Assembly (NCBI GenBank): GCA_965237865.1
Contig: OZ250164.1
Span: forward strand, 2,440,142-2,504,141
Direction of reading: 5' to 3'
DNA length: 64,000 nt
From: Dehalococcoidia bacterium
GTDB taxonomy: Bacteria > Chloroflexota > Dehalococcoidia > UBA2979
A model generated the notes under the pieces. That model was given only the letters and a program-made list of their open reading frames with translations, was not told where the DNA came from and made no database searches. Both the position numbers and the translations under genes were made by a program. The number at the start of each line of letters is the position of its first letter. The first letter of the stretch is position 1. Shown here one piece after another: positions 178 to 47,957 of this stretch.

Positions 178-1433
178 GATTCGGCCTCCCAGCGTCCGCG
201 GTTGATGGTGCGGCCGGGATCGAACTGCCGCCGCAGCGCGCGCACCAGCGCGCGCTCGCCCTCGCCGAAGGGATCGGCCTCCGCGCGCAGTGCGGGCGGC
301 CCGGCCTCGATCTGCAGGAAGCCGCCGTGCTGCTCGGCGCGGGCGCGCAGCGCGATCACGTCGGAGGCCTCGATGGCGCCTCCCGCCGCGATCACGCTGC
401 CTGCCGTCAGGTGCCCCCAGGCCACGATGCCTCCTGTATCGCTGGTTTCAGTGTCGCTCGTTTCACGGTCGCTGGTTTCAGTGTCGTCGATCGCCTCGAT
501 CGCTTCCAGCGTCGCAGCAACCTCGCTGGCCGGCACGCCGAGGCGCAGCACGACGCCCCGCTCGCCCCCGGCGAGGGCGCGCAGCCGCTCCCACGCGCCC
601 GGCGGCGGCTCGATCGCCGCGCCCCCGGCGCGCTCGACGATCGCCGCCGCGCAGCGGTCCAGCGTCTCCTCGTCGCCCATCGCCTCGAGCAGCGCGTGCG
701 GGTGCGCCTCGAGGCCCGCGACCACAGCGGCCTGCGGCGAGAGCACGGAGAGCGCGCGCAGCGGCAGCGCCAACTCGCGCAGCTCGAAGGCGAGCGCCGC
801 GGCGTCCTCGACGCGCTCGCGGGGCACGGCCAGCGAGCGCGTGGCGGGGGGCAGCGTGGCGAGCTTGAACGAGGCCTCGACGATCACGCCGAAGACGCCG
901 AGCGCGCCGGTGTGCAGGCGGTGCAGGTCGTAGCCGCTGACGTTCTTGACGACGCGCCCGCCCGTGCGCACGAGCTCGCCCGAGGGCGTCGCGACCGTCG
1001 CGCCGAGCAGCAGATCGCGCGCGGCAGGCAGCTGCCCGCGCCAGGCGCCGGGCCGCGCCGTCGCCAGCAGCCCGCCGATCGAGACGCGCCCGTCCGGCGG
1101 CGGGTCGACCGGCAGGTACTGGCCGTACTCGGCGAGCATCGACTGCATCGCGCGCAGGCTCATGCCCGCCCCGACGGTCACGGTCAGGTCGTCCGGCTCG
1201 TAGGCGACGGCGCTATCGAGGCCGGAGAGGTCCAGCGCCACGTCGTAGCGGTCGAGCGGCCGGCCGAGCGAGAGCGCCGTGCGCCCGCCCTGCGGCGACA
1301 CAACCTGCCCCGCCGCGGCGGCCTGGGCGAGCAGCTCCGCGACCTCCTCGGCGGAGCCGGGCCGCCACGCCTGTTCCGGCGTCTTGCCGTCGATCGGGTA
1401 CGCCGCCGGGTCCGGCGCTGCGCCGCTGCTCAT
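174..1433 (-). CDS. glcE: glycolate oxidase FAD-binding subunit GlcE
   Basis: 419-aa ORF with FAD-binding PCMH-type domain signatures (e.g. NVSGYDLHRLHTGALGVFGVIVEASFKL). Operon position between glcD and glcF. Contains a low-complexity (TETSD)n insertion. Confidence 0.85.
437..487. repeat. 15-bp imperfect tandem repeat (~3.3 units) inside glcE, encoding ETSDR/ETSDT repeats
   Basis: Seen directly: gctggtttcagtgtc / gctcgtttcacggtc / gctggtttcagtgtc. In frame (15 bp = 5 codons). Confidence 0.7.
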
Positions 1434-1443
1434 GCCTCGCGGC

Positions 1444-2889
1444 CTAGATGTAGACGCCGGGCGTCGCGAGGTGCCGGCGCACCTCGGCGGCGTGTCCGGA
1501 GGCGCAGCCGTGCCCGGACGGCATGATCTTGCAGGGGTTGAAGGTGTCGCCCGTGCCGAACGCCACGCGCAGGCGCGACATCGCCTCGAGGTCCGCGGGG
1601 GCGAAGATCCAGTCCATGTAGGAGCGCTTCTCCAGGCCGACGCCGTGCTCGCCGGTGATCGAGCCGCCGGCGTCGACGCAGATGCGCATGATCTCGCCGC
1701 CGAGGTCGAGCACGCGCTCGGTCGCGCCCTCGTCGAGCTCGTCGAACATGATGTTGGGGTGCAGGTTGCCGTCGCCGGCGTGGAAGATGTTGGCGCAGCG
1801 GAAGCCGTACTCGTCGGCGAGCCCGTTCACCGCCGCCATCACCTCCGGCAGCTTCGTGCGCGGCACGACACCGTCGAGGATGTAGAAGTTCGGCGAGCTT
1901 GCGCCGATCGCGCCGATCCCGCCCTTGCGCCCCTCCCAGAGCCGCTCCCGCTCCTCCTCGGACTCGGCGACGCGGATCTCGCGCGCGCCCGACCCCAGGC
2001 ACGCCGTCTCGACGCGCTCCACGTCGGCGGCGACCGACTGCGGGACGCCCTCGACCTCGATCAGCAGCACCGCGCCGGCGTCGAGCGGGTAGCCGACGTG
2101 CATTTGCGGCTCGATGATGCGGATGATCGCCTGGTCCAGCATCTCCATCGCCACCGGCAGCACGCCGCCACGGATCACCGCCGAGACCGCCTCCGAGGCG
2201 TCGTCGATGCTGTCGAAGATCGCGAGCATCGTGCGCACGTCGGGTGGCAGGCTGACCAGCGAGACGCAGACCTTGGTGACGATGCCGAGCGTGCCCTCGG
2301 AGCCGCAGAAGACGCCGCGCAGGTCCGGCCCCGGCACGTCCGGCTGCCGCCCGCCGAGCCAGGTCAGCCGCCCGTCCGGCAGCACGACCTCGACGCCGAG
2401 CACGTGGTTGACCGTGCTGCCGTGCGCGAGGGTGTGCGGCCCGCCGGCGTTCGTCCCGACGTTGCCGCCGATGGTGCAGATGCGCTGCGAGGAGGGGTCC
2501 GGCGCGTAGCGCAGCCCGTGCTCGGCGCAGGCGTCCTGCAGCGCGAGGTTGATCACCCCCGGCTCGAGGACCGCGACGCGGTTGACCGCGTCCAGCTCGA
2601 GGATGCGGTTCATACGCGTCAGCACCACGGCCACGCCGCCGAGAATCGGCACCGCGCCCCCCGCCAGCCCCGTCCCGGAGCCGCGAGGCACCACCGGCGC
2701 CCGGTGCCTGCTCGCGATACTGACGGCGGCCGCGACCTCCTCGGCGCTGCCGGGCAGCACCACGGCGTCCGGGCGCGCGCGCTCGATCGTCGCGTCGTAC
2801 TCGTAGCCGAAGAGATCCTCGGGCAGGTGCAGCACGTGCGCCTCGCCGAGGGCGTCCTGCAGCTCGCGGATCAGCTCGTCATTCGCCAT
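1444..2889 (-). CDS. glcD: glycolate oxidase subunit GlcD (FAD-linked oxidase)
   Basis: 481-aa ORF with a FAD-binding domain and a C-terminal FAD-oxidase domain, highly GlcD-like throughout. Lies 10 bp upstream of glcE. Confidence 0.9.
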   Translation of the reverse strand: MANDELIRELQDALGEAHVLHLPEDLFGYEYDATIERARPDAVVLPGSAEEVAAAVSIASRHRAPVVPRGSGTGLAGGAVPILGGVAVVLTRMNRILELDAVNRVAVLEPGVINLALQDACAEHGLRYAPDPSSQRICTIGGNVGTNAGGPHTLAHGSTVNHVLGVEVVLPDGRLTWLGGRQPDVPGPDLRGVFCGSEGTLGIVTKVCVSLVSLPPDVRTMLAIFDSIDDASEAVSAVIRGGVLPVAMEMLDQAIIRIIEPQMHVGYPLDAGAVLLIEVEGVPQSVAADVERVETACLGSGAREIRVAESEEERERLWEGRKGGIGAIGASSPNFYILDGVVPRTKLPEVMAAVNGLADEYGFRCANIFHAGDGNLHPNIMFDELDEGATERVLDLGGEIMRICVDAGGSITGEHGVGLEKRSYMDWIFAPADLEAMSRLRVAFGTGDTFNPCKIMPSGHGCASGHAAEVRRHLATPGVYI

Positions 2890-2911
2890 GAAGCGAGTCT
2901 AGCACCGGCGC

Positions 2912-3280
2912 CCTATCGCCCCTCTCTCTTGGTGAGACGACGGCGAGAGTGAGGGGACCTCCGGCGTGCGCCTACCCCGCCGTTCCCGGCTCCCCCCTCT
3001 CCCTGGGGAGAGGGCGGGGGTGAGGGGCACACCATACTTCCGAGGGGCACGGAGCGTTCGAGGGCGAGCGCGTCCCTCAGTGGGGGGCTGCGCCCCCCAC
3101 ACCCCCATCCCGGAGGAGCGTGCGCTGCGCGCCGCTCGGCCCACCCACCCGCCCTCGGATGTTCTTTCTGTGGGGGCTTCGCCCCCACGCCCCCGTCGGA
3201 TCGGGAGACAAGGCGCCTCTGCCGTAGCGCCCTGGGGTGTCTCTCTCCCTGGAGAGACGGCGAGAGTGAGGGGTCCGCTC
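2912..3280 (+). repeat. dispersed mosaic intergenic repeat element, copy A (full, with core)
   Basis: Core 3082-3196 is GGGGGGCTGCGCCCCCC...GGCCCACCCACCCGCCCTCGGATGTTCTTTCTGTGGGGGCTTCGCCCCCAC. It is flanked by CTCTCCC-N-GGGAGAG hairpins and GAGAGTGAGGGG modules. Near-identical cores occur at 5 other loci in the window. Confidence 0.85.
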
Positions 3281-3284
3281 GAAC

Positions 3285-4325
3285 CTACCCGCCCGCGAGG
3301 CCCGGACCGGCCACCTCGCCGGCGGCGGTCACGACGACGTCGGCGTAGCTGCCCCCGCGCAGCCGCGCGCCCGGCTCGACGAGGGCGCGAATGAGCTCGG
3401 CGTCCTCGATCACGGCGTTGGCGCCGACGACCGTCTCCGCGAGGCTGCAGCCCTCGACCGTCGCGCGCGCGCCGATCAGCGCCGGGCCGGCGATGCGCGA
3501 TTCGCGGACGCGCGCGCCCTCGGCGGCGAGGACCGCGCCGCTGATCTGATTGCCGCCATCCGCGAGCGCCGAGGCACTGCCTGATCCGGAGTCCGCCTCA
3601 ATGCCCGGCAGCAGCCGCGACTGGGCGTGCAGCAGCCCTTCGAGCGTGCCGCCGTCGAGCCACTCGCCGTCGAGCGTCCAGCCGCGCAGCTCGCGGCCCT
3701 CGCCGAGCAGCGCGGCGACGGTCGCGGTGAGGTCGGACTCGCCCTTCGCGTTGATGTAGGGGTTCGTGCGCACACGCTCGACCGCCTCCGGCGCGAGCAG
3801 CCAGAGCCCGACCAGCGCGAGGTTCGAGCGCGGCTGCTCCGGCTTCTCCTCGAGGTCCACGATCCGCTCGCCCTCGAGCAGCGCGACCCCGAAGGCGCGA
3901 GGGTCGTCGACCGCCTGCAGCAGCAGCCCGGCCGTCGCGCCCGAGTCCTCGAAGTGCCGCAGCAGCGCCGGGTCCGCGCCCCGCAGCACGGTGTCGACCG
4001 CCAGCACGGCGACCGTGCGCTCCTCGAGCGCCGCGCCGACCGAGGCGACGGCGTCGCCGGGTCCGTTCGGCTCCCGCTGCACGGCTTCGGAGACCGTGAC
4101 GCCGGGCGGCGCGTGGCTGCGCGCGACCTCGGCGGTCGTCGCGTCCTCGGGACCGACGACCACGGCGATCTCGCGCAGCCCGAGCGAGGCGAGCAGCTCG
4201 AGCGCGTAGACGATCAGCGGGCGGTTGAGCAGCGGGACCAGCGGCTTCGGAGTAGCGGGCGTGATCGGACGCAGCCGCGTCCCCAGCCCCGCGGTCAGCA
4301 CCACGCCAAGCGGCCCTCGCGCCAT
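3285..4325 (-). CDS. sugar-phosphate nucleotidyltransferase (glucose-1-phosphate thymidylyl/uridylyltransferase-like, with C-terminal left-handed beta-helix)
   Basis: N-terminal GVVLTAGLGTRLRPITPATPKPLVP nucleotidyltransferase motif. C-terminal hexapeptide-repeat region. Start chosen at the internal ATG (MARGPLG) preceded by a GGAGGGG RBS; the ORF could extend to 4355. Confidence 0.75.
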   Translation of the reverse strand: MARGPLGVVLTAGLGTRLRPITPATPKPLVPLLNRPLIVYALELLASLGLREIAVVVGPEDATTAEVARSHAPPGVTVSEAVQREPNGPGDAVASVGAALEERTVAVLAVDTVLRGADPALLRHFEDSGATAGLLLQAVDDPRAFGVALLEGERIVDLEEKPEQPRSNLALVGLWLLAPEAVERVRTNPYINAKGESDLTATVAALLGEGRELRGWTLDGEWLDGGTLEGLLHAQSRLLPGIEADSGSGSASALADGGNQISGAVLAAEGARVRESRIAGPALIGARATVEGCSLAETVVGANAVIEDAELIRALVEPGARLRGGSYADVVVTAAGEVAGPGLAGG

Positions 4326-4411: not shown

Positions 4412-7360
4412 ATGATGCCGATGCCGCAAACGACCGAACCGGCCTTCAACAACGAACTCGCGAACGCGCTCCGCGGCAAGCACCCGCGATGGCGCGAGGG
4501 CAATCGCATCGGCTCGGAGCAGACAGGCGTCTTCCAGGACCACCTGGGGCTGCAGCCCGACATCGTAGTCCACCACCCCGGCGGTGCTCCGGTAGTCGTT
4601 GAGACCGAGTTCGAGCCTGCGCGCACAGTCGAGGACGACGCCCGCGCCCGCCTTGGCCTGGTCATCGCGGAGACCGGAGACGCCGTCGAGCAGGCCATCG
4701 CGATCCGCGTCCCGCTCGCTATGCGCGGCGATCAGAGCCACCTCCCCGAACAGATCGCCGCCGCAGAGTTCCGCTACTGCGTCTTCACCCACCGCGAGGG
4801 CGAGCCGCACGATCCCCTGCGCTGGCCCAAGTCGGGCTGGCTCAGCGGCGGCATCGACGACCTCGCGGGTCTGATCGAGCAGACCGCCCTCTCCGAGCGC
4901 CGCATCGCCGAGGGCATGCGCATCCTCGAGGAAGGTGTGGGACAGGCCGCCGCCCGCCTCCGCTCCAACCTCGAACACGATCGGCCCGGCGTGCTGGCGC
5001 AGATCGCCGAGGCGCTCCACCAGGAGGGAGGGGAGCAGACCTCGCGGATGGCGATGGCCATCGTCGCCAATGCACTCACCGTTCACACGAGCATCGCTGG
5101 TGCCCACGACATCCCCCCGCTCGACGAACTGCGCGGCGCCCGCGGGCAGTTGTTGAAGACGAGGGTGCTGGCGACCTGGCGCCGCATCCTGCACGAGATC
5201 AACTACTGGCCGATCTTCAGGATCGCCTCGGACGTGCTGCTGCCCATTCCGAACGGGACGGCGGGCGCGGTGCTTGAGCGCCTGCACGCGGTCGCCGCCG
5301 AGCTCGACGGCATCGGTGTGACCAGCACGCAGGATCTGGCTGGGCAGATGTTTGGCCGGCTGATCACAGACCGGAAGTTCCTCGCGACGTTTTACACGCT
5401 CCCGTCCTCGGCGGCGCTGCTCGCCGAACTCGCTGTCTCGCGGCTGGATGTCGACTGGCCGGATGCCGAGGCGGTGAAGGCGCTGCGCATCGCCGACCTC
5501 GCCTGCGGCACGGGCGTGCTGCTCGCTGCCGCCTACCGCGCGACCGCAGCACGCCACCGCCGCGCCAACGGTGATGACGAGGCGCTGCACCAGGCGATGA
5601 TGGAGCATGCGCTGATCGGCGCCGACATCATGCCCGCCGCCACGCACCTGACCGCCTCGATGCTGTCGAGCGCGCACCCGACCGTGACGTTTGGCAACAC
5701 GCGGGTCTACACGATGCCGTACGGCAGGCAGGGCGAGGAAGCTGGCGACGCCATCGCCATCGGGTCGCTCGACCTTATCGAGAGCGACACGATGCTGGCC
5801 TTGTTCACCACCGGGCGACAGGTTCTGCGCGGTACGGGAGCAGACGAGGAGGCCGAGGGCTTCCAGGAGCTTGTGCTGCCCACCGCCACTGCCGACCTCG
5901 TGATAATGAATCCGCCCTTCACACGACCGACGAATCACGCGGGCATCTACGGGGTACCGGTGCCATCGTTCGCGGGATTCGCGACGACCGACGACGAGCA
6001 GGCGCATATGGCAGCAGCCCTGAAGGGCATCCGCGGGCGACTGACTGACCCTGCGGGCGACGGCAACGCAGGGCTCGCGTCCAACTTTCTCGATCTGGCG
6101 CATCAGAAGGTCACGCCCAAGGGCGTCCTGGCGCTGGTGCTGCCGCTTACGGTGATCTCGGGCGGATCGTGGTCGGCGGCACGCCGCCTGCTCGCGCGCC
6201 ACTATCGTGATGTCACGGTCATTGCTCTGGCCACGACGGGACAATCCACGCGGGCGTTCTCGGCGGACACGGGCATCGGCGAGGCGCTGATCGTGGCGGT
6301 GAAGCGCGACGAGCCGAATGAAGCCGGGGAGGACGATGGCGAGGCGAACTGTCCCACGCTGTACGTCAACCTCGTGCATCGACCGCGGAGCACGGTCGAC
6401 GCTGGGGAAGTCGCTCGCGCGATAGCACAGCTTGCGAATCAAGAGACCGGCTTCATCCACAGCGGTGATGACGAGGTCGGCTGCTACATCCGCGCGTCGC
6501 TTGCGGACGGCGGCTGCGCCTCGCTCCGTGAGCCGCACGTCGCCGCCGCCGCGCTCGGCCTGCCGCACGGCTCACTGCGCCTGCCACGGCTGCCCGAGCC
6601 GTTCGAGATCCCGATCGCCAAGCTCGCCGATCTCGGCGAGCGCGGCCTGGTTGACCGCGACATCGCCGGCGAGGAGCGGAACAGGGCCGGGGTGCCGCGC
6701 GGGCCGTTCGATGTCGTGTTCCGCCGCACCGGGCGAGCCGCGTACCCCATGCTCTGGGGGCATGACGCGAACCGGGAGCGGCGGCTCGCGGTGGAGCCGG
6801 ACAGCGAGGGGCGCGCGCGGCCGGACAGCGACGCGCGGGCGGTCGCTGTCTGGGAAACGGCCACCCGGCTGCACCTCAACCGCGACTTCCGCCTGAACTC
6901 GCAGAGCCTCGCCGCGTGCCTCACGCCGGAACGATCGATCGGCGGCAGGGCGTGGCCGAACTTCAGCGTCGAGGGCGATGCGCGTCGCGAGGAGGCGCTC
7001 GCGCTCTGGGCGAACACCACGCTTGGGCTGATCTGCTTCTGGTGGATCGCCGGGCGGCAGCAGCAGGGTCGCGCCATCCTGACGATCTCGAACCTGCCGT
7101 CGCTGCCGGTCCTTGACGTGCGAGAACTCGACGCGCGACAACTCGGGATCGCTGCGCGAATCTTCGAGGACTTCCGCGACTGGACGTTCCTGCCAGCCAA
7201 CGAGGCGTACCGCGACGACACGCGGAAGGCGCTCGACCGCGCGGTCCTGTGCGACCTGATTGGCCTGCCGGAGTCGATCCTCGAACCGCTCGACGTGCTG
7301 CGCGAGCAGTGGTGCGCGGAGCCGACGGTGCACGGCGGCAAGTCCACGCGGCCCACGTAG
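4412..7360 (+). CDS. large standalone N6-adenine DNA methyltransferase-domain protein (candidate Type IIG/IIL restriction-modification enzyme)
   Basis: 982-aa ORF. SAM-binding motif I (RIADLACGTGVLLAAA) lies upstream of catalytic motif IV (LVIMNPPFT), i.e. gamma-class amino-MTase order. TFYTLPSSAALLAEL matches the motif-X-like region. About 340 aa of N-terminal and about 350 aa of C-terminal (putative TRD) extensions flank the MTase core. No separate R or S genes nearby. Confidence 0.7.
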   Translation: MMPMPQTTEPAFNNELANALRGKHPRWREGNRIGSEQTGVFQDHLGLQPDIVVHHPGGAPVVVETEFEPARTVEDDARARLGLVIAETGDAVEQAIAIRVPLAMRGDQSHLPEQIAAAEFRYCVFTHREGEPHDPLRWPKSGWLSGGIDDLAGLIEQTALSERRIAEGMRILEEGVGQAAARLRSNLEHDRPGVLAQIAEALHQEGGEQTSRMAMAIVANALTVHTSIAGAHDIPPLDELRGARGQLLKTRVLATWRRILHEINYWPIFRIASDVLLPIPNGTAGAVLERLHAVAAELDGIGVTSTQDLAGQMFGRLITDRKFLATFYTLPSSAALLAELAVSRLDVDWPDAEAVKALRIADLACGTGVLLAAAYRATAARHRRANGDDEALHQAMMEHALIGADIMPAATHLTASMLSSAHPTVTFGNTRVYTMPYGRQGEEAGDAIAIGSLDLIESDTMLALFTTGRQVLRGTGADEEAEGFQELVLPTATADLVIMNPPFTRPTNHAGIYGVPVPSFAGFATTDDEQAHMAAALKGIRGRLTDPAGDGNAGLASNFLDLAHQKVTPKGVLALVLPLTVISGGSWSAARRLLARHYRDVTVIALATTGQSTRAFSADTGIGEALIVAVKRDEPNEAGEDDGEANCPTLYVNLVHRPRSTVDAGEVARAIAQLANQETGFIHSGDDEVGCYIRASLADGGCASLREPHVAAAALGLPHGSLRLPRLPEPFEIPIAKLADLGERGLVDRDIAGEERNRAGVPRGPFDVVFRRTGRAAYPMLWGHDANRERRLAVEPDSEGRARPDSDARAVAVWETATRLHLNRDFRLNSQSLAACLTPERSIGGRAWPNFSVEGDARREEALALWANTTLGLICFWWIAGRQQQGRAILTISNLPSLPVLDVRELDARQLGIAARIFEDFRDWTFLPANEAYRDDTRKALDRAVLCDLIGLPESILEPLDVLREQWCAEPTVHGGKSTRPT

Positions 7361-7432
7361 CCGCGCACCCCGCGGGGCGCGAGCGGCTATCATCGCCGCG
7401 GCGCTGCCGCGCGGCGCAGGAGCGGGGGCGGG

Positions 7433-9814
7433 ATGCTGCTGCGAGGGCTCAACGTCGTCGAGATCTCAGCGAGCGGGGCCGCTGCGTGGGCCACGAAGGA
7501 TCTCGCCGACTGGGGCGCGAACGTCGTCGTCCTCGAGCCGCCCGAGGGCAGCCCGCTGCGCGCCGAGCCGCCCTGGTACGAGCGCGAGGGCGAACGCCGC
7601 AGCGCCACCTGGCAGTGGCTCTCGCGCGGCAAGACCGTCGTCGCCGCCGGGCCCGATCTGGCGACGACGCCAGAGGACGCACTCGCGCTCTGCCGCGACG
7701 CCGATCTCGTCGTCGCGGAGCACGAGCCGCTGGCCGCGCTGCTCGGCCTCCGCCCGGCCGAGGTGCGCGCCGCGCTCGAGGGCCACAGCGTCGTCGTACG
7801 CATCGCCGCCTTCGCCCCGGACGGGCCGTACGCGCACTACCGCGCGACGGACCTCGGGATCTGCTCGCTTGGCGGCTGGGCGGGGATGCTGGGCGCGCCC
7901 GATCGGCAGCCGCTGCGCCCGGCGGGCGACCTCGGGACGCGCGCGACGGGGCTGCACGCCCTCGCAGCGGCGCTGTTCGCCCTGCGCCACCGCGAGCGCG
8001 GCGCGGCGCCCTCGTTCGTCGAGGTCTCGGCGCAGGCGGTCGCCGCCGCGCTGCTGACCAGCCCCTGGCTGGCCTACAGCATGTTCGGGACGACTGGCTT
8101 CCGGCGCGCAGCGACCTGGCCGAACGCCTCCGTGCGCTGCAAGGACGGCCACGCCGGCATCCTCCCGCTCACCCACCAGCACTGGGCCTCGCTCTGCGAG
8201 GTGACCGGCATCGCCGACGTGCTCGATGAGCCCGGCGGGCGCGAACTGAGCTACCGCCAGGAGCACGGGGCGGAGCTGTGGGAGCGCGTCCACGAGTGGT
8301 ACGAGCTGCGCACCCGCGAACAGGTCTACTTCGCCGGCCAGGCCGTGCGCGTCCCCTCCGGGCCCGCCGACAGCGTCTCGCAGCGCCTCGCAGACGCGCA
8401 TCTGGAGGCGCGCGGCTTCTTCGAGCGCGCCGTCGTCGACGGCGTGATGCTGCGCGTGCCGCGCGTGCCCTACCGCATCGCGGGCGCTCCGACGCTGCCG
8501 CGCGGCGCGGCGGTCGAGGAGCAGCGCGCGAGCTTCGCGCCCGGCGATGCCGGCACCGCCAGCGACGCCGAGCCGCCGGCGCTGCCGATGGAAGGCGTGC
8601 GGGTGATCGACCTGACGTGGTTCTGGTCCGGCCCCCACGCCACGATGAACCTCGGCGCGTTCGGGGCGGACGTGATCAAGGTCGAGTCGGTGAGCCGGCC
8701 GGACTCCTACCGCTTCACCGGCGCCGCCGCCGGGGAGTCGCAGGCCTGGGAGCGCAACTACCTCTGGAACGACTCCAACCAGAACAAGCGTGGGCTCACC
8801 GTGGACCTCAACACGGAGACCGGCCGGGGGCTCTTCGAGCGGCTGCTGCGCGAGGGCGACGTGATGGTCAGCAACTTCTCGAACCGCGTGCTGCCGAACC
8901 TCGGCTACACCGCGGAGCGCCTGCACGAGATCAACCCGCGGCTGATCAGCGTGACGATGCCGGGCTACGGCCCGGACGGCCCCTGGGGCGACTTCGTCGG
9001 CTTCGGCAGCACCTTCGAGCAGGCCGTCGTCGCGACGATGAACGGCTACGCCGACGACGACCAGCCGCGCCTGATCGGCGGCGCCTGCGACCCGCTCGTC
9101 GGCATGAACGCCGTCGTGGCGATCCAGCTCGCGCTGCGCCATCGCGAGCAGTCCGGCCTCGGCACGACGGTCGAGGTGCCGCAGTGCGAGGTGCTGGACG
9201 CGATGTTCGGGCCGGAGCACATCGCCGTGCAGCACGGCGCGCCGGACCCCGGCCTGCGCGGCAACAAGCACGACCGCATGGTCCCGCACGAGGTCTACCG
9301 GACGGCCGGCGAGGACGCCTGGATCAGCATCGCCGTCGACAGCGACGATCAGTTCGCCGGGCTCGTGAGCGTGCTCGGTCAGCCCGCGCTGTCGGACGAC
9401 CCGCGCTTCGCGAGCGCAGGGGACCGCAAGGCCAACGAGGAGGACCTCGACGCGATCGTCGCCGACGCCGTCCGCGAGCGGGAGCCGCTCGAGCTGGAGG
9501 CGGCGCTGCAGGCGGTCGGCGTCGCCGGCTGCCGCGTCACGCCGCCTCACCGGCTGACGGAGGACGTGGGCCTGCGGCACTTCGGCTTCTTCCAGGAGCT
9601 CACGCGCGAAGTGACCGGCACGCACCTCTACAAGACCTTCCCCTTCCGCTTCAGCGGCTTCCCGGCCGCCCACCGCAGCACCGCGCCGCTGCTCGGCGAG
9701 CACAACCGCGAGGTGCTGAGCGAGCTGCTCGGTCTCGGCGAGGAAGAGCTGGACGCCCTCGAGGCGGCGGGCGAGATCGGCACGACGCCCTCCTGGTCGC
9801 CCACGCCGACGTAG
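7433..9814 (+). CDS. tandem-fused family III CoA-transferase (two CaiB/BaiF domains in one polypeptide)
   Basis: 793-aa ORF. Residues ~1-370 and ~390-793 each resemble CaiB/BaiF family III CoA-transferases. The second domain has the conserved GACDPLVG active-site region. Confidence 0.75.
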   Translation: MLLRGLNVVEISASGAAAWATKDLADWGANVVVLEPPEGSPLRAEPPWYEREGERRSATWQWLSRGKTVVAAGPDLATTPEDALALCRDADLVVAEHEPLAALLGLRPAEVRAALEGHSVVVRIAAFAPDGPYAHYRATDLGICSLGGWAGMLGAPDRQPLRPAGDLGTRATGLHALAAALFALRHRERGAAPSFVEVSAQAVAAALLTSPWLAYSMFGTTGFRRAATWPNASVRCKDGHAGILPLTHQHWASLCEVTGIADVLDEPGGRELSYRQEHGAELWERVHEWYELRTREQVYFAGQAVRVPSGPADSVSQRLADAHLEARGFFERAVVDGVMLRVPRVPYRIAGAPTLPRGAAVEEQRASFAPGDAGTASDAEPPALPMEGVRVIDLTWFWSGPHATMNLGAFGADVIKVESVSRPDSYRFTGAAAGESQAWERNYLWNDSNQNKRGLTVDLNTETGRGLFERLLREGDVMVSNFSNRVLPNLGYTAERLHEINPRLISVTMPGYGPDGPWGDFVGFGSTFEQAVVATMNGYADDDQPRLIGGACDPLVGMNAVVAIQLALRHREQSGLGTTVEVPQCEVLDAMFGPEHIAVQHGAPDPGLRGNKHDRMVPHEVYRTAGEDAWISIAVDSDDQFAGLVSVLGQPALSDDPRFASAGDRKANEEDLDAIVADAVREREPLELEAALQAVGVAGCRVTPPHRLTEDVGLRHFGFFQELTREVTGTHLYKTFPFRFSGFPAAHRSTAPLLGEHNREVLSELLGLGEEELDALEAAGEIGTTPSWSPTPT

Positions 9815-9857
9815 GCGCGCCGGGCACGCGGCGGTACCGTCGCGGTATCCTCCGGAC

Positions 9858-10475
9858 ATGGTCACGGACCTCGCGAATCCCGGGCTGAAGGAGTGGGCCG
9901 TCGTCGTGCGCGCGCTGCGCGATGGCCGGCAGATCATCGACCTGCGCAAGGGCGGCATTCGCGAGGAGGGCCACCGCTTCCGCGTGCGCGCCTCGCGCTT
10001 CTGGCTCTACGAGAGCTACGAGCACCAGCGCCCGGAGCTGATCCGCCCCTCCGAGCGCCCGCTGATCGAGGCCGTCGCCGCCTCGGCGCCCGCGGCGGGC
10101 GAACTGCGCGTCGATGCCTGGGCGGAGATCGCGGAGACGGCGGCGCTGACCGAGCCGGAGCAGGTGGCCGCGCTCGACGGGCAGCACATCTGGACCGCGG
10201 ACTACGCGGAGCAGCGCTTCCGCTGGCGTCCGAAGGCGCCGCTGATCGTGCTCGTGCTGCGCGTGCACCGCCTCGCGGAGGCGCTCACCGTCCCGATCCG
10301 CGAGCACTACGCCGGCTGCACCTCGTGGACGCCGATGGCCGACCTGCCGCCCGACCCGCGCGAGGCCGCCTCCGCGCCCGTCCTCGACGACGCCGCGTTC
10401 GAGCAGCGCCGCGCCGAGCTTCACGCAGCGTTGCCGGGCATCGCCTTCGGCCCGCCGCAGATCGAGGACGAGTAG
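9858..10475 (+). CDS. conserved hypothetical protein (DUF1802-like)
   Basis: 205-aa ORF with a protein-like composition and the KEWAVVVRAL...IIDLRKGGIRE N-terminus. No recognisable catalytic motif. Confidence 0.55.
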   Translation: MVTDLANPGLKEWAVVVRALRDGRQIIDLRKGGIREEGHRFRVRASRFWLYESYEHQRPELIRPSERPLIEAVAASAPAAGELRVDAWAEIAETAALTEPEQVAALDGQHIWTADYAEQRFRWRPKAPLIVLVLRVHRLAEALTVPIREHYAGCTSWTPMADLPPDPREAASAPVLDDAAFEQRRAELHAALPGIAFGPPQIEDE

Positions 10476-10507
10476 CGCGGGCGCGCGGCAGGGCACCCGG
10501 ACCACCG

Positions 10508-10870
10508 TCCGATCCCCTCTCCCCTGGCGGGAGAGGGTTAGGGTGAGGGGGATTCCGGGCGCCGCAGCGCCCTCCGATCCCCTCTCCCGCGGCGGGAGAG
10601 AGGGTCAGGGGACTCCGAGGCCGATCGCGTGTCGCCTGCAGGGGACTGCGCCCCCCACACCCCCATCCCGGACGAGCGCGCTGCGCGGCTCTGGCCCACC
10701 CACCCACCCTCGGATTTCTTTTCTGTGGGGGCTGCGCCCCCACGCCCCCACCCGGATCGGCAGCCGGAACAGAGCCTCGAGGGCGCGCCCTCCGATCCCC
10801 TCTCCCGCCAGGGGAGAGGGTGAGGGTGAGGGGGACTCCGGGCGCCGGAGCGCCCTCGGAACGGGAGTTA
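10508..10870 (+). repeat. dispersed mosaic repeat element, copy B (full, with core 10641-10752)
   Basis: Core GGGGACTGCGCCCCCCACACCCCCATCCCGGACGAGCGCGCTGCGCGG...TTCTTTTCTGTGGGGGCTGCGCCCCCAC. Three CCCCTCTCCC-N-GGGAGAGGGT(G/T)AGGG modules. Sits between convergent gene ends. Confidence 0.85.
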
Positions 10871-11760: not shown

Positions 11761-12339
11761 ATGGTTGATTCGACAGACGTGGCCCTTCACCTGGACCTCG
11801 AGCGCCTGGAGGCGGGCCTCGACCACATCCGCCGGTCCCCGGCGGACGACGGCCTGCTCCTGATGATCGTCAGACGGCCCGACGTCGACCGGCGCGAGGT
11901 CGTCGAGGAAGGCGGCCTCGACGTTGCGGTCGGCCTCGTTGGTGACAACTGGAAGGACCGCGCAAGCTCGAGCAGCGCCGACGGCGGACCACATCCCGAG
12001 GCGCAGCTCACGATCATCAACTCCCGCGTGCTCGACCTCGTGGCGCAGTCCGGGGACCGCTGGCCGCTCGCAGGCGATCAGCTGGTGATCGACCTCGACC
12101 TGAGCGCGGAGAACCTGCCGCCCGGGACGCGCCTGTCCATTGGCTCCGCGGTGATCGAGATCACCGCGAAGCCGCACACCGGCTGCGCGAAGTTCGCCGG
12201 CCGCTTTGGCAACGACGCGCTCCGCTTCGTCAGCACCCCGCTGGCGATGGAGCTGCGCCTGCGAGGCGTCAACACCCGTGTCGTGCAGTCGGGCACGATC
12301 CGCGCCGGAGATGCGGTCGCGAAGATCGCGGCGCCATGA
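11761..12339 (+). CDS. MOSC domain-containing protein
   Basis: C-terminal PGTRLSIGSAVIEITAKPHTGCAKFAGRFGNDALRF is typical of MOSC (MoCo sulfurase C-terminal) domains. ATG 11761. Stop overlaps the next gene (ATGA). Confidence 0.75.
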   Translation: MVDSTDVALHLDLERLEAGLDHIRRSPADDGLLLMIVRRPDVDRREVVEEGGLDVAVGLVGDNWKDRASSSSADGGPHPEAQLTIINSRVLDLVAQSGDRWPLAGDQLVIDLDLSAENLPPGTRLSIGSAVIEITAKPHTGCAKFAGRFGNDALRFVSTPLAMELRLRGVNTRVVQSGTIRAGDAVAKIAAP

Positions 12340-12791
12340 CCGACGAACGCGCCGACAGCGGCCCGGAGAGCGGCGCGGACAACCGGCAGGACGCGGTCCT
12401 CGAGGCCAACGCGGCGTTCTACCGCGCTTTCGCCGAGCGCGACCTGGAGGCGATGGACCGGCTCTGGGCGCGCGAGGCGCCGGTCGCCTGCACGCACCCC
12501 GCGTGGACCGTGCTGACCGGGCGCGACGACGTGCTGAAGAGCTGGGAGGGCATCCTCACCAACCCGGACGCGCCGACGATCGAGGTGCGGGACGCCATCG
12601 CGCACCGCCTCGGCGACACGGCGATCGTGCTCTGTCGCGAGATCGTGCAGGGCGCGCCGGCCGAGGCGACCAACGTCTTCGTGCTCGAGGGCGGCGAGTG
12701 GCGCATCGCGCACCACCACGCCAGCGCGATCGCGCGCTTCCTCGTCTCCCGCTCCGTGGAGACGGACCCCTTCCGCGACCGCCGCAACTAG
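12336..12791 (+). CDS. SnoaL-like/NTF2-like (DUF4440-type) protein
   Basis: 151 aa with an NTF2-like fold composition. The last 37 nt, including the stop, lie inside the left 72-bp direct repeat. Confidence 0.65.
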   Translation: MTDERADSGPESGADNRQDAVLEANAAFYRAFAERDLEAMDRLWAREAPVACTHPAWTVLTGRDDVLKSWEGILTNPDAPTIEVRDAIAHRLGDTAIVLCREIVQGAPAEATNVFVLEGGEWRIAHHHASAIARFLVSRSVETDPFRDRRN

Positions 12792-12826
12792 CGACGGTTG
12801 TCCGCCGCTACAGCGCGAGGCCGGGC
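12755..12826. repeat. 72-bp perfect direct repeat, left copy (attL-like), bounding the low-GC island
   Basis: Identical to 15527-15598: cgtggagacggaccccttccgcgaccgccgcaactagcgacggttgtccgccgctacagcgcgaggccgggc. Contains the convergent stop codons of the SnoaL-like and ybaK-like genes and an imperfect hairpin TAGCGACGG-ttgt-CCGCCGCTA. Confidence 0.9.
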
Positions 12827-12855
12827 CGCCGCCACGCCCGATGTCGATGCTCAGT

Positions 12856-13407
12856 CTATTCTCTTGAAGCCTCGATCTCCTTGTCTAGAGAGCGGGCTGT
12901 CAGATTTGCAACTATGGACTTGACATCTAAGTTCCGGAGTCGCAGGTATGCAGATATTTCTGGGATAACAGTAACTGATTCTTTGCCCACGCAACTCAAG
13001 CGCAAATGCGTGTTCAATTCTGCGGTTCTTATTGCGATCTCGAGTACAGCAGGCGGTGCGAGTACGTAAAGGCCTACTGCATGAGGCAACCCAGAATCAT
13101 GCACGAGTGCAGTCGGAGAAACCAGTACTGGTAAAATATGCGCCTTCTCATCTCCATCAGCTAGATTCTTTCTCACCCAGTTCACATGGCCCGTAGCCTC
13201 GAGCAATTCAGTCTTCGAGAGTTTCGAGCCCGGGCTCTTGCCGGTCTTTGCTTCGAACACTAGATGAGTCCCGTCAGAGAACGACCAAACGCAATCCGGT
13301 GCGCCATCGTCGGTGGGACGGCTCGTATCAGCGCCAAGCGCATTGCCCAACTCTTCGAGCCCCTGATGATAGGGGGTAGCTTCCGCCTGGCCAAGCCTCC
13401 GAAGCAT
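12856..13407 (-). CDS. PD-(D/E)xK nuclease-like small protein (island gene 2)
   Basis: Canonical PD...(14 aa)...EAK motif (GAPDCVWSFSDGTHLVFEAKTG). First in-frame ATG is 13405-13407. The open frame continues protein-like up to the helicase stop (13520) with a strong GAAGGAG SD overlapping that stop, so the true start may be non-canonical or the two ORFs may be a frameshifted fusion. The ORF-track extent to 13668 begins at TTG inside the helicase. Confidence 0.55.
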   Translation of the reverse strand: MLRRLGQAEATPYHQGLEELGNALGADTSRPTDDGAPDCVWSFSDGTHLVFEAKTGKSPGSKLSKTELLEATGHVNWVRKNLADGDEKAHILPVLVSPTALVHDSGLPHAVGLYVLAPPAVLEIAIRTAELNTHLRLSCVGKESVTVIPEISAYLRLRNLDVKSIVANLTARSLDKEIEASRE

Positions 13408-13519
13408 TTCTGCCTTGCGGTTCTCAAACTGGGGACCTGCCCATCCGGCAGAATCGAGATATGCCCAAACTTCCTCCTCATTGTCGGCAAGCTCACTATC
13501 CTGGCCAATCTCTTCTCCT

Positions 13520-15430
13520 TCAACAGCGGCCAGAGAGCTCGCTAGGAAACCCCGATTGGTCCCGCAGGCAATCGCCCTTTCTGAGACAGTCGGCGGCGGT
13601 TCCGGTCTCCCCCTGCCTACACGACGACATCGCCGCCAAGTACCACCACCAGGCTCGATACCCCGCAAGCTCCGGTGCGGAAACTTGATCGGCGACCTGA
13701 CGCGCGGCCTCGTAGGCCCCGAGCCAGTGGCCGTCCCACGCCCGTTGGGCGAAACGGATCTCAGTGCTCACCACACCGCGAAGTTGGTCATGGAAGGCTG
13801 TGCCCGTCGCAGCCTCTTGTTCCTCTCGCAACTCAGCGACCAGCCGGTCGGCTTCTGCTCGGTATGAATCGTCTGTAAGGAGACCACGTATCATTTCAGT
13901 AAGGTCGTCAGGACTCGTAGCAAAGTCGCGAGTCTTGTTCATTCCCCATTTGACTTCGGCCTGCACGTCCGGTGGGAGGCTTCCGATCACGCTCGCAGTG
14001 CTGGACGCGTCCACGAGGCGTTGACCGAGCCAGAAGACCACTGCGTAGTCCGTATCACCTCGCGTGCAGCGTCCAAGGCCCTGGACAAGACGCGTCCTCA
14101 GGCGACTGCGGAGCACCGGTCCGCAGCGCCATTGACTTAGCAGGTTCCGCTCTAGCGGCGAGAGCGCCGTCGGAGCACCGGCCATCACCAGCAGTCGACA
14201 ATCTTCGTGCGGTAGGTCGATCCCATCGTAGCGACTGAGGGCGAGCACAGCGTTCTGTTTGCTCGTGAAGGGCTCAAGCGATTTTCCGATGGCATCCGCG
14301 CGCAGAACCTCCGCAGCGGGTTCTACGCTCGATGCTAGGGAATTCGCTTCCAACGTTGCACGATACGATGAAGGGGCTAGAAGCAAAGCCCGGCGAGGAA
14401 CTAGCTCTTGGAATGTTCTCGTAACCAAATCCGAAGCTGTCTCCGTGTTCGCGTACATCTCTGGAACGAAAATGAAGCGCCGACCAGAGTGCTGATATTC
14501 GGCTCGAAGTCCGACGGGCTCTTCGATGCCGTATGCCCGGCGGAGGTCGTGCATGCTACCTAGGGTGGCAGACAGAAAGATTCTTTGACGTGTTTCAGCG
14601 AATGGGGCGTGAGACCAAGTCGGAGGAATCAACGGACGGATTGTGATCTCGACAGACGAAACTAGGATCAGGCAAGCATCCAGCTGGTCCCGTATCTGGC
14701 TCCACGCGTAACGGAGATCACCCCGCTCCGCGTCGAGCGCTTCCGTTAGTTCGGCCGTACAAGCGGGACGCATTGATACATCGACGAGGAACGGGTCAGA
14801 GCCTGGGTCGTTCGTATCCTCCAGCCTACGCCGCTGTCGTTCGTCCATAGCCGGTAAGAGAGCTGTCGCCAGCCTTGAGTAGAGCTGAGCATTGGTGCTG
14901 CGCGATACTGACACGGACCACATCGAGGCCACGTAGTCTTCGCCGCCATGAACGTCGTCGAGCACGACAAGCTCCACGTTCTTGATGATCGGATTCACGT
15001 TGAACATATTCGAGTAAGTTGAGATAGCCACCGCATCAGCCGTACGGAAGCGCCCCTCGGCTATCGGATCGCGTGAGCCGGACGGCCCCGAGACATCTGC
15101 GCAGTCGAATCCGCTCCTATTCGCTTCAGCCAGTACTTGGGACGCCAGCTGATTCGTCAGCGTGAGATAGGCCGTTGGCCTCTGGTAGGTTCTGCGGCAC
15201 CACTCAGCTATCGCGAGACCCACGGTAGTCTTGCCGGTACCAGTGGGCAGCTCGATGGCAACGTTTGCGGCTTCATGGTGGTGCTGGTCGTACTGCCGAA
15301 TTACATCTTGTTGTGGACCGCGCAAGAACTCATGCGTCCGCGCCCGATTTCTCGACCCATAGAATGTCGCCTCTACGGAAGCGGGCGCTGATTCTGGTTT
15401 TCCTGTTCGCAAGCTTGGTCGAGCACACAT
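13520..15430 (-). CDS. SF2 DExH-box helicase, ResIII/DinG-like (island gene 1)
   Basis: Motif I IELPTGTGKT, Ia LTNQLASQV, II VVLDDVH (DExH), III FLSATL, VI QGLGRCTRG. 636 aa. Low-GC codon usage unlike its neighbours. Confidence 0.8.
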   Translation of the reverse strand: MCARPSLRTGKPESAPASVEATFYGSRNRARTHEFLRGPQQDVIRQYDQHHHEAANVAIELPTGTGKTTVGLAIAEWCRRTYQRPTAYLTLTNQLASQVLAEANRSGFDCADVSGPSGSRDPIAEGRFRTADAVAISTYSNMFNVNPIIKNVELVVLDDVHGGEDYVASMWSVSVSRSTNAQLYSRLATALLPAMDERQRRRLEDTNDPGSDPFLVDVSMRPACTAELTEALDAERGDLRYAWSQIRDQLDACLILVSSVEITIRPLIPPTWSHAPFAETRQRIFLSATLGSMHDLRRAYGIEEPVGLRAEYQHSGRRFIFVPEMYANTETASDLVTRTFQELVPRRALLLAPSSYRATLEANSLASSVEPAAEVLRADAIGKSLEPFTSKQNAVLALSRYDGIDLPHEDCRLLVMAGAPTALSPLERNLLSQWRCGPVLRSRLRTRLVQGLGRCTRGDTDYAVVFWLGQRLVDASSTASVIGSLPPDVQAEVKWGMNKTRDFATSPDDLTEMIRGLLTDDSYRAEADRLVAELREEQEAATGTAFHDQLRGVVSTEIRFAQRAWDGHWLGAYEAARQVADQVSAPELAGYRAWWWYLAAMSSCRQGETGTAADCLRKGDCLRDQSGFPSELSGRC

Positions 15431-15526
15431 CGTGACCTCTCACAGCATTCGCCATCGCAATTCACGGACCATTGGGTCTAGAACAGTCTACCGTGGCACA
15501 TGCCATCTGAGCGTTTCGCGCTGAGG

Positions 15527-15598
15527 CGTGGAGACGGACCCCTTCCGCGACCGCCGCAACTAGCGACGGTTGTCCGCCGCTACAGCGCGAGGCCGGGC
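15527..15598. repeat. 72-bp perfect direct repeat, right copy (attR-like)
   Basis: Identical to 12755-12826. Contains the authentic 3' end of the ybaK-like gene and a remnant 3' end of the SnoaL gene. Confidence 0.9.
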
Positions 15599-16071
15599 AC
15601 GACCTCGGCGTTCGGGAGGCGCAGCAGCGCCGAGGGCGCGACCGCGAGCTTCGTCGAGCGGCCGCCGCCGCCCACGATCACCTCGTCGAGGTCCATGACG
15701 CGCTCGTCGATGTAGAGCGCCAGATCCTCGGGCAGGCCGAACGGGGTGACGCCGCCGATCAGCATGCCGGTCAGCTCGCGCGTCTCCTCGGGCGAGGCGA
15801 ACGAGGCCTTGCGCACGCCCAGCAGCGGGCGCACCGCGTGGTTGACGTCGAGCCGCGTGGTCGCCAGCACGAGGCAGGCGCAGTAGCGCAACTCGCCGCG
15901 CTTGGAGACGACGATGATGGTGTTGCCGGAGGTCTCCGGCGGGTAGCCGTAGTGCTCGCAGAACGCCGCCGTGTCCGCCAGTTCCGGATCGACCTCGATC
16001 AGCTCGTAGGACTCGCCGAGGGCGTCCAGCGCCGCGAGGGCGCGCGCCGCCGGGTCGTCGCCGGACGTCAT
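15580..16071 (-). CDS. YbaK/ProX-like aminoacyl-tRNA (Cys-tRNA(Pro)) deacylase
   Basis: 163 aa with a YbaK-fold signature (IIVVSKRGELRYCACLV...GMLIGGVTPFG). Confidence 0.75.
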   Translation of the reverse strand: MTSGDDPAARALAALDALGESYELIEVDPELADTAAFCEHYGYPPETSGNTIIVVSKRGELRYCACLVLATTRLDVNHAVRPLLGVRKASFASPEETRELTGMLIGGVTPFGLPEDLALYIDERVMDLDEVIVGGGGRSTKLAVAPSALLRLPNAEVVPGLAL

Positions 16072-36498: not shown

Positions 36499-38079
36499 AT
36501 GGCCTACCGGGAGGTGCATTGCGTGGAGATCAGGGAAGTCATCCGCCGCTGGCAGGCGGGACTCAGCCAGCGCCGGATCGCTGGCGGCACGGGAGTGTCG
36601 CGGCCGACGGTGCGGCGCTACATCGAGGCGGCGGAGGCGGCCGGGCTTGAGCCCGGCGGTCCCGAGCCGAGTGAGGAGCAGCTCGCCCGCCTGGCGACGC
36701 TGAGCCGGACCGGGCCGCGGCAGGCGGAGGCGCCGAGCGAGCAGCTGCTGGCGCCGTGGGCGGAGCAGATCGAGGGCTGGCTGACGGCCGAGCGCCTGCA
36801 GGTGACGCGGGTCCAGGAGCTGCTGGCCGAGCGCGGCTGCGAGGTCTCGTACAGCTCGCTGCGGCGCTTCATCCGGCGCCGCGGCTGGCGCCAGCGGCAG
36901 CCTGTGACCGTGCGCATGGAGGACGGGCCGCCGGGCGAGGTCGCCGAGATGGACTTCGGCCGGCTCGGCCTGGTCACGGATCCCGAGAGCGGCCGCCGGC
37001 GCACGGTGTGGGCGCTGATCGTGGTCTGGCGCTACTCGCGGCACTGCTTCGTCTGGCCCACCACCAGCCAGCAGCTGGGGGCGGTGATCGAGGGCCTGGA
37101 GGCGGCCTGGGCCTGTTTCGGGGGCGTGCCCCGCTACCTCGTCATCGATAACTTCCCGGCCGCCGTGGCCGGGGCCGACGCGCTGCACCCGCGCTTCACG
37201 CGGGGCTTCCTGGAGTACGCCCGCCACCGCGGCTTCATCAGCGACCCCGCACGCGTGCGCCGGCCCCGCGACAAGCCGCGCGTCGAGCGCAGCGTCCCGT
37301 ACGTGCGCGAGCGCTTCTTCAAGGGTGCCCAGTTCCGGGACCTCGCCGAGATGCGCTCCGTCGCCCGGCGCTGGTGCCTGGAGGTGGCGGGGCAGCGCAT
37401 CCACGGCACGACCCGCAGGCGCCCGCTCGAGGTCTTCCAGGAGGAGGAGCGCCCGCTGCTCGCCCCGTGGGACGGGGAACCGTACGAGCTGCCCGACTGG
37501 CGTACGGCGACGGTCCACGCAGACCACCACGTCGCCTGCCAGTACGCACTCTATTCGGTGCCGTCGGAGCTCTGCCCGCCGGGGCAGAAGGTGGAGGTGC
37601 AACTCGGCGCGAAGCTGGTGCGCATCTACCACCGCGGCGCGCTGCTCAAGGTCCATCCGCGCCAGCAGCGCGGCGGCCGGGCCACCGACCCGAACGACTA
37701 CCCGGCAGAGCTCAGCCCCTACACGCGGCGTGCGCCCGAGCAGATCCAGCGGCGCGCGGCCGAGCTGGGCGAGGCCGTGGGCAGCTACGCCGAGCGGCTC
37801 TTCGAGGGACCCCTGCCCTGGGCGAAGCTCCGGCAGGGCCACAAGCTGCTGCGGCTCGCGGAGCGCTACTCCCCCGCCCGCCTCGATGCCGCCTGCCTGC
37901 GGGCGCTCGAGGTCGAGCTGATCGACGTGCGCCGGCTCGAGCGCATCCTCGTCGAGGCCCTCGAGCAGGAGACCACCCCGCAGCAGCCGCCCGGGCCCCC
38001 GCCGCCGGGCCGCTTCGCCCGCCCCGGCGCCGTCTTCGCACTGACCGCCACGCAGACCACGACAGGAGCGTCACGATGA
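36499..38079 (+). CDS. istA: IS21 family transposase IstA
   Basis: N-terminal HTH, DDE integrase core (...VWALIVVWRYSRHCFVW...), 526 aa. Stop overlaps the istB start (ATGA). Confidence 0.9.
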   Translation: MAYREVHCVEIREVIRRWQAGLSQRRIAGGTGVSRPTVRRYIEAAEAAGLEPGGPEPSEEQLARLATLSRTGPRQAEAPSEQLLAPWAEQIEGWLTAERLQVTRVQELLAERGCEVSYSSLRRFIRRRGWRQRQPVTVRMEDGPPGEVAEMDFGRLGLVTDPESGRRRTVWALIVVWRYSRHCFVWPTTSQQLGAVIEGLEAAWACFGGVPRYLVIDNFPAAVAGADALHPRFTRGFLEYARHRGFISDPARVRRPRDKPRVERSVPYVRERFFKGAQFRDLAEMRSVARRWCLEVAGQRIHGTTRRRPLEVFQEEERPLLAPWDGEPYELPDWRTATVHADHHVACQYALYSVPSELCPPGQKVEVQLGAKLVRIYHRGALLKVHPRQQRGGRATDPNDYPAELSPYTRRAPEQIQRRAAELGEAVGSYAERLFEGPLPWAKLRQGHKLLRLAERYSPARLDAACLRALEVELIDVRRLERILVEALEQETTPQQPPGPPPPGRFARPGAVFALTATQTTTGASR

Positions 38080-47883: not shown

Positions 47884-47957
47884 CGCGCTGCATCCTCTCC
47901 CGCCGGCTGCGCCCGCCTCCCGCGGAAGCCGGCCCGCGGGAGGCCAGTCACCTCGTA

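Follow-up and report, generated by a model that had tools for sequence, protein, structure and literature searches.

A predicted Hna-type defence gene between perfect copies of a native 72-bp gene junction in a Dehalococcoidia genome

Integrase-less islets flanked by attachment (att) sites are known as the cis-mobilisable elements (CIMEs) of the ICESt1/ICESt3 family. Defence islands that target tRNA or tmRNA genes by means of tyrosine integrases have also been described, and the att repeats specified by these elements are 14-27 bp long in examples (PMC12595487). The locus considered here lies in a 64-kb stretch of contig OZ250164.1 (assembly GCA_965237865.1, positions 2,440,142 to 2,504,141) from a Dehalococcoidia bacterium of lineage UBA2979; we refer to the whole stretch as the window. 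In it, an insert of foreign composition, with one predicted gene for an Hna-type helicase-nuclease and neither a recombinase nor element ends, separates two native copies of a 72-bp sequence, and similar footprints recur elsewhere. We describe it as a defence islet of one Hna-type gene in a convergent intergenic hotspot that is hypervariable; what sets it apart is that its target duplication is long, perfect and native, with no recombinase present. It resembles the CIMEs and the tRNA/tmRNA islands in having direct repeats that include a host gene 3′ end, in its defence cargo and in the need for mobilisation in trans; however, those elements have element-specified att sites and a cognate integrase family in the lineage, whereas here both 72-bp copies are native to the lineage and neither a parent element nor a cognate integrase came to light.

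Three other classes of event invite comparison. The longest transposon target-site duplications that we know of are about 27-28 bp (IS1202 group), with 14-15 bp for casposons. The islet shares with them an identical native sequence on both sides of the insert, but 72 bp is far longer, and among analogous cases in other genomes the length ranges from 25 to 253 bp. A transposon or insertion sequence (IS) was rejected as a candidate, there being no transposase, no terminal inverted repeats and no ends common to the analogous units; a target duplication of short fixed length was rejected in view of the lengths just given. Integron gene cassettes are likewise recombinase-less single-gene units, with repeats of about 60-140 bp and often with defence cargo. 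This candidate was also rejected, because the repeat consists here of host gene ends and has no attC-like fold, and there is no IntI or attI nearby (no IntI-like gene among the window proteins scanned). Illegitimate and template-switch models include homology-facilitated illegitimate recombination (HFIR) and short-patch double illegitimate recombination (SPDIR) in naturally transformable bacteria, and fork stalling and template switching/microhomology-mediated break-induced replication (FoSTeS/MMBIR) and capture by non-homologous end joining (NHEJ) in eukaryotes. These need no dedicated recombinase and leave variable junctions, and a backward re-entry or overlapping ends would give an insertion flanked by a duplication; to our knowledge, however, they are documented for short patches or eukaryotic rearrangements, not for kilobase-scale foreign genes with 25-250-bp duplications in bacteria.

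As for the cargo, Hna of Sinorhizobium meliloti is a single-protein abortive-infection defence system that combines a superfamily 2 (SF2) helicase with a PD-(D/E)XK nuclease and acts as a 3′-5′ single-stranded DNA (ssDNA) exonuclease (PMC13381803). Extensive horizontal transfer has been described for it (PMC12445080).

The repeat, the insert and its gene

The 72-mer (CGTGGAGACGG...GAGGCCGGGC) is present in the window in exactly two identical copies (Table 1); no third match was found there at up to three mismatches, and dinucleotide shuffles lead one to expect none. The perfect direct repeat around a low-GC island that the first-pass annotation had described is thus real, with both copies identical and the coordinates as claimed. 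Its division of the repeat into 37 nt of a SnoaL-like gene end, a 16-nt spacer and 20 nt of a ybaK-like gene end holds for the first two parts, while the third is 19 nt (37+16+19=72). According to the table of open reading frames (ORFs), the SnoaL_3 gene contributes its 3′ end, TAG included, as repeat positions 1-37, positions 38-53 are the spacer, and positions 54-72 are the last 19 nt of the YbaK/tRNA_edit gene with the stop included. The palindrome that lies over both stop codons likely serves the two genes as a bidirectional terminator. Taken whole, the 72-mer shows no special or attC-like fold (z ~0).

The insert is the sole strongly low-GC stretch in the window, where no other low-GC island bounded by repeats was found. 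It consists of a single gene with a 96-bp 5′ flank and a 29-bp 3′ flank and has no further coding space, which argues against an eroded larger element with visible remnants. Scans of its ORFs of the Pfam/PADLOC type detected no integrase or transposase, so that the earlier description of an island without a recombinase stands: an hna-like gene is all that it encodes. No terminal inverted repeats were found, and a check for filler DNA of local origin was negative, the terminal 23-mers of the insert occurring nowhere else in the window. No sigma-70-type promoter was detected in the 5′ flank, and the 3′ flank holds no terminator of the gene's own.

The insertion is genuine, foreign and recent. 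Its recency had been proposed from the identity of the two copies, and it is supported by the 0 mismatches over 144 bp of repeat, by the near-intact state of the gene (one frameshift apart) and by a GC content still far from the host's. A perfect 72-bp repeat would be prone to deletion, and precise loss of the insert by homologous recombination would now be possible.

The two ORFs of the insert overlap, and a single PADLOC profile, PDC-S28, covers both: ORF1 corresponds to its N-terminal part and ORF2 to its C-terminal part. One extra base, outside any long homopolymer, splits the predicted defence gene into ORFs of 636 and 270 aa. This frameshift may be genuine, the alternative being a consensus or sequencing error, and if genuine it was possibly a relief from the toxicity of an abortive-infection nuclease in a new host. 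Once corrected, the protein has a Walker A motif (GTGKT), a DDVH box and a C-terminal D...EAK nuclease motif, and it retains 120 of the 122 columns, those of the three motifs among them, that are invariant across 27 homologues, which fits a recent arrival. A phmmer comparison with the solved Hna chain (10uj_A/9yhn/9ykj, 845 aa) aligned residues 23-755 with 22-757 (E=4.4e-29). The near full-length profile match, the similarity to the Hna chain, the SF2 motifs and the C-terminal PD-(D/E)xK motif together identify the predicted product as an Hna/PDC-S28 helicase-nuclease defence protein. Its likeness to the Hna anti-phage system is one of homology along nearly the whole length of the solved chain (PDB 9YHN/9YKJ/10UJ); the differences are that the homology is distant, that PDC-S28 is a PADLOC candidate family, and that the gene here is frameshifted and known from sequence alone. 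In the literature, the name 'PDC-S28' turned up just once, in a survey. The exact ORF1 occurs once in a collection of 5.8 billion proteins; the homologue closest to it has just 52% identity, so there is no sign of a resident element family in the clade.

Table 1. Positions of the islet features in the window and of repeat-bounded hna-like units at other loci
Feature	Position	Strand	Basis or description
Host SnoaL_3/DUF4440 gene, intact	12336..12791	+	ORF table, Pfam
Left repeat copy	12755..12826		True SnoaL-like 3′ end 12755-12791, spacer 12792-12807, redundant ybaK end 12808-12826
Imperfect palindrome TAGCGACGG-TTGT-CCGCCGCTA	12789-12810, second copy 15561-15582		Overlaps both stop codons
Foreign insert, 2,700 bp	12827..15526	-	57.8% GC vs 71.9% in the rest of the window
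3′ flank of inserted gene, 29 bp	12827..12855	-	GC-rich; duplicated host hairpin comes next
Predicted Hna-type (PADLOC PDC-S28 family) helicase-nuclease gene	12856..15430	-	857 aa after removing one frameshift
ORF2, 270 aa, C-terminal PD-(D/E)xK-like nuclease part, other frame	12856..13668	-	PDC-S28 profile positions 678-843, E=2.4e-15
ORF1, 636 aa, two SF2 helicase domains (DEAD/ResIII + Helicase_C_2)	13520..15430	-	PDC-S28 profile positions 37-612, E=5.6e-81
Frameshift, one extra base between codons CTC (Leu) and GAA (Glu)	~13582	-	Comparison with 860-aa homologues
5′ flank of inserted gene, 96 bp	15431..15526	-	GAGAGG ribosome-binding site-like motif before ATG
Right repeat copy	15527..15598		Redundant SnoaL-like end 15527-15563, spacer 15564-15579, true ybaK 3′ end 15580-15598
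Host YbaK/tRNA_edit gene, intact	15580..16071	-	ORF table, Pfam; identical to database protein P0249
L091 unit	412-3869		127-nt repeat, 93%; flanking cupin-like gene 3′ end; hna alone
L118 unit	685-3506		48-nt repeat, 87.5%; no gene assigned; hna alone, 2,774-bp unit
L139 unit	4856-7763		29-42-nt repeat, ~90%; tRNA-His 3′ half; hna alone, 2,846-bp unit
L124 unit	4673-9357		253-nt repeat, 94%; upstream DUF1801 gene 3′ end; hna + methyltransferase
L163 unit	4897-8472		37-nt repeat, 89%; DUF1156 methylase gene 5′ end; hna + Abi_C gene

The site in relatives and the origin of the two copies

The site was compared with that in about 27 contigs labelled as Dehalococcoidia or Chloroflexi metagenome-assembled genomes (MAGs), which were reached through the YbaK and SnoaL protein clusters and one genome scan and have a YbaK identity of 91-98%. 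Gene order around the site is conserved (ECH, MOSC, SnoaL, YbaK, glyoxalase, luciferase-like, short-chain dehydrogenase), and the interval between SnoaL and YbaK varies. At least 13 of these contigs have a VapBC pair (RHH+PIN) there, and at least 8 have 198-485 bp of repetitive extragenic palindromic (REP)-like repeats; 3 show IS elements with a group II intron or else a rearrangement, and 1 has VapBC with an extra small gene. Even contigs that share an identical SnoaL protein differ in the state of the interval; this convergent intergenic site is hypervariable, with rapid turnover in the clade. The IS-bearing intervals of L005 and L006 contain IS110/IS5/DDE elements and a group II intron reverse transcriptase, and IS110-family genes also lie near ybaK in L005 and L016.

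An hna-like gene, the 16-nt spacer and the duplication, with or without an insert, were all absent from the relatives. Each half of the 72-mer is single-copy in every one of them, so that, as far as these contigs show, the repeat does not belong to a genome-wide repeat family. The first-pass annotation had proposed to look for an empty site in relatives; none was found, and in place of a compact single-copy site these contigs have VapBC, REP-like or IS sequences. Exact look-ups of the YbaK, SnoaL and ORF1 proteins of the window led to no indexed contig. At its edges, the window spacer resembles the ybaK-proximal bases of VapBC-bearing alleles (AACTAG vs AACCGG). This resemblance suggests that the spacer is probably the product of a VapBC deletion and that the lineage probably lost VapBC before gaining hna.

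Both copies of the repeat carry the spacer that the relatives lack, and both have a proline codon at the ybaK end where most relatives have serine or alanine. Because these lineage-specific features are found in both copies, the redundant copy must have been made from this lineage's own DNA, and a foreign attP from an element of 58% GC is unlikely. For the same reason, the attL/attR arrangement to which the repeat had been likened is not favoured in the form in which the element brings its own attP. A classical tyrosine-recombinase event leaves just the pre-existing identity block as a repeat, and an incoming element would not be expected to bring 72 bp that match a strain-specific host gene junction. 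Native copies leave two options. Either the duplication arose in situ as the insert went in, or a circle already bearing the native 72-mer recombined in Campbell fashion, which presupposes an earlier repeat-flanked copy in a conspecific.

Similar footprints elsewhere

A profile of the family retrieved 79 metagenomic hna-like loci. When the 1.5-kb flanks on either side of the hna-like gene were compared, 4 of the 67 testable loci had strong direct repeats (34-165 bits); in the controls, the best score in inverted orientation was 26 bits (13 nt), and of 72 windows shifted within these loci none reached 30 bits. A self-comparison of 81 loci (674 kb) yielded about 12 independent repeat pairs, 5 of them enclosing the hna-like gene (Table 1). 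Among the flanking ORFs tested at L139, L118, L091 and L078 (a unit with other cargo, described below) there was no recombinase, and no terminal sequence is common to the four solo-gene units (the window, L091, L118 and L139). The recurrence of the footprint around hna is statistically suggestive, not strong.

Small cassettes with local duplications at the 3′ end of ybaK were found in three other lineages. In L012, a member of the clade (VXOS01000104.1, Chloroflexi MAG SB0662_bin_38), a 66-nt repeat at the same ybaK end (8470-9165) flanks an insert of about 0.6 kb; its copies match at 48 of 66 positions, as against 36±1 in shuffles (z ~12). The ORF of this insert has an R-x4-H HEPN-like motif and a weak DUF4145 match and reads into the diverged copy of the C-terminal codons of ybaK, and further scraps of the ybaK end lie at 8508-8521 and 9150-9165. 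In L078 (Actinomycetota MAG32, 8457-10468), a perfect 25-nt repeat, composed of the final 12 nt of ybaK and a GC hairpin, encloses a recombinase-free 2-kb TetR/SRPBCC/DUF4386 cassette just after ybaK. In L025 (Entotheonella palauensis, 8418-9352), a 35-42-nt ybaK-end repeat surrounds a 0.9-kb pair of C39-like peptidase genes, again recombinase-free. Across the analogous recombinase-free units, the length of the duplication is continuous from 25 to 253 bp.

Self-mobility of the hna gene was considered as a general rule and rejected. Most hna-like genes have no flanking repeats, which indicates that the gene is cargo and not an autonomous element. No bounding repeats were found at the two closest homologue loci fetched (L003 and L004, both in defence islands or integrative and conjugative elements, ICEs) or at 30 proviral hna-like loci. 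One allele, P0113, present in at least 24 contigs, always lies between hsdS and hsdM of a type I restriction-modification (R-M) operon (L207-L216). There, in another housing of the same defence gene, a Fic/RhuM gene lies upstream. A literature search for the footprint brought up only integrase-bearing islands or eukaryotic and organellar cases.

Possible routes of insertion

Tentatively, we favour a recent duplicative, recombinase-independent insertion of a foreign Hna-type gene, a reading that we consider plausible rather than probable. It builds on the native origin of both copies, the sharp boundaries of the repeat, the lack of element ends, the continuous 25-253-bp range of the analogous duplications and the diversity of their targets and cargo. 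From these we infer a joining mechanism, an order of events and a role for selection. Foreign DNA of 2.7 kb with one defence gene would have entered the terminator region of just 16 nt where the SnoaL-like and ybaK-like genes converge. The insertion would have been duplicative: on the original sequence, the left joint lies beyond the right one, 72 bp further right, such that 72 native bp ended up on both sides and both host genes and the hairpin stayed intact. The duplication would have been made in situ by an illegitimate (recombinase-independent) event, for which there are two candidate joinings: capture of the foreign DNA between broken ends that were staggered or overlapped, or a double template switch in which copying resumed 72 bp behind the point where it had left. 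Only outcomes that spared both neighbouring genes would then have been kept by selection. Since only 16 nt separate the stop codons and the hairpin overlaps them, an insertion without duplication would disrupt either the hairpin or one of the gene ends. A duplication that takes in the hairpin leaves both genes whole and supplies the incoming gene with a terminator, and such an outcome would be retained. At insertion or soon after, the gene would have been disabled by the 1-nt frameshift.

In a broader version of this proposal, long (25-250 bp), variable, recombinase-free duplications of native gene ends would be the footprint of a general, undescribed duplicative route by which single genes or mini-cassettes, notably of the Hna type, enter at terminators between genes, the repeat in the window being a fresh example. 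We regard this extension as doubtful.

A number of points weigh against the recombinase-independent account. The joining reaction offers no observable step. We know of no established bacterial pathway and no experimental precedent for the duplicative illegitimate insertion of kilobase-scale foreign genes. The enrichment of repeats around hna-like genes is modest (4/67 vs 0/72, roughly p=0.05), and the empty site was never observed among the approximately 27 related contigs. Other points lead to an att-type site-specific integration, in which the 72 bp would be the identity block of attL and attR, and the islet either a small integrase-less circle integrated by a tyrosine recombinase acting in trans, as for a CIME, or a larger element since trimmed down to the cargo gene next to its att site. 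The repeat spans gene 3′ ends and holds an imperfect palindrome that might be a recombinase core site, its 9-4-9 layout being equally compatible with a shared terminator. At L139, the repeat is the 3′ half of tRNA-His, a classical sign of targeting by a tyrosine integrase. Another such sign is seen in L012: its older repeat begins at this ybaK end too, 23 nt into the gene (19 nt in the window), and together with the extra scraps this second repeat resembles the result of serial integration. The site is a hotspot with different cargo in relatives, and our search for recombinases took in 64 kb of a genome of about 3.48 Mb, which leaves room for one that acts in trans. Nevertheless, we think an att-type event, the chief rival, rather unlikely. 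Neither the island nor the syntenic 6-8 kb around it, where the neighbours are housekeeping genes, contains a recombinase; the nearest transposase, 3.5 kb away, is of the unrelated IS110 type; and the units at L139, L118, L091 and L078 have none beside them. No cognate recombinase or parent element was met in the examined sequence, no remnants of other element genes accompany the cargo, which has no close relative in the clade, and no arm sequences are conserved among the analogous units. Moreover, 72 bp of any attP would have to be identical to two host gene ends and the lineage-specific spacer between them.

A Campbell-type crossover, the other route named in the first-pass annotation, would have a circle of the insert plus one 72-bp copy, excised in a conspecific in which the arrangement was already present, integrate at the native 72-mer through RecA. 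The observed arrangement is exactly that of a single crossover, two perfect native copies follow automatically, and the 72-bp length is above the minimum that RecA-dependent recombination requires in model bacteria. To this extent the earlier suggestion fits, but it explains spread and leaves the origin of the first circle or repeat-flanked copy with the native 72 bp unexplained. In addition, database look-ups found no conspecific genome or second copy, and a non-replicating circle of 2.77 kb requires a transfer route; we judge this route improbable. A transposition-like insertion with a very long staggered cut, made in trans or by the Hna-like protein, would turn the 72 bp into a target-site duplication. 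The identity of the native repeats, the nuclease and helicase domains of the cargo and the recurrence of hna-like genes as repeat-bounded solo units would suit it. However, analogous repeats vary from 25 to 253 bp and share no ends, most hna-like genes sit repeat-free in type I R-M operons, ICE/defence islands or proviruses, and repeat-bounded units also carry unrelated cargo (TetR/SRPBCC, C39 peptidase, HEPN-like protein). Hna itself has been characterised as a 3′-5′ ssDNA exonuclease defence protein (PMC13381803), and we hold an insertion of this kind to be very improbable. Hardly credible, finally, is an artefact of long-read metagenome assembly, such as the erroneous joining of a circular element with the same 72-mer into the path of the chromosome. 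The source is indeed a MAG contig and the repeat is perfect; but the 2.7-kb insert is shorter than typical long reads, and structures of the same kind occur in independent short- and long-read assemblies, where their imperfect repeats cannot be graph collapses.

For most genes that bacterial hotspots have gained by horizontal transfer, no vehicle can be identified; here a very recent event has been kept base for base. If this footprint and its older counterparts in other phyla did arise by a recombinase-independent duplicative route, it would provide a searchable signature for the addition of integrase-less defence islets and small cassettes at gene ends with the neighbours undamaged, and would also explain the precise loss of such inserts. 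If a trans-acting recombinase was at work instead, the locus would be a minimal, cargo-only integrative cassette with its attachment site in an uncultured Dehalococcoidia lineage.

The remaining observations concern the surroundings of the islet in the window. The IS110-family transposase gene (DEDD_Tnp_IS110 + Transposase_20, 19093..20430, minus strand), 3.5 kb from the island, lies beside a REP-like palindrome (19033-19071), and a second transposase, which combines an rve integrase core with a C-terminal domain of the Mu-transposase type, is encoded at 36499..38079 on the plus strand. REP-like GC-rich palindromic repeats (CCCTCTCCC...GGGAGAGGG, then GGGTGAGGGG) occupy intergenic positions at 3016-3215, 10497-10860, 19033-19071 and 29449-29713, and in several relatives the SnoaL-YbaK spacer is filled by repeats of this family too. 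At 49085-51192, an apparent array of small SnoaL_4-like paralogues on the minus strand comprises five tandem 430-bp units (approximate length; 64-82% identity to a reference unit). There are tandem pairs of paralogues at 46822-49019 (luciferase-like monooxygenases, 92%/300 nt) and 21387-22500 (short-chain dehydrogenases, 83%). A Fic/DOC-domain gene on the minus strand (24979-26355) has a lower local GC content (~0.63 around 26001) and may be acquired.

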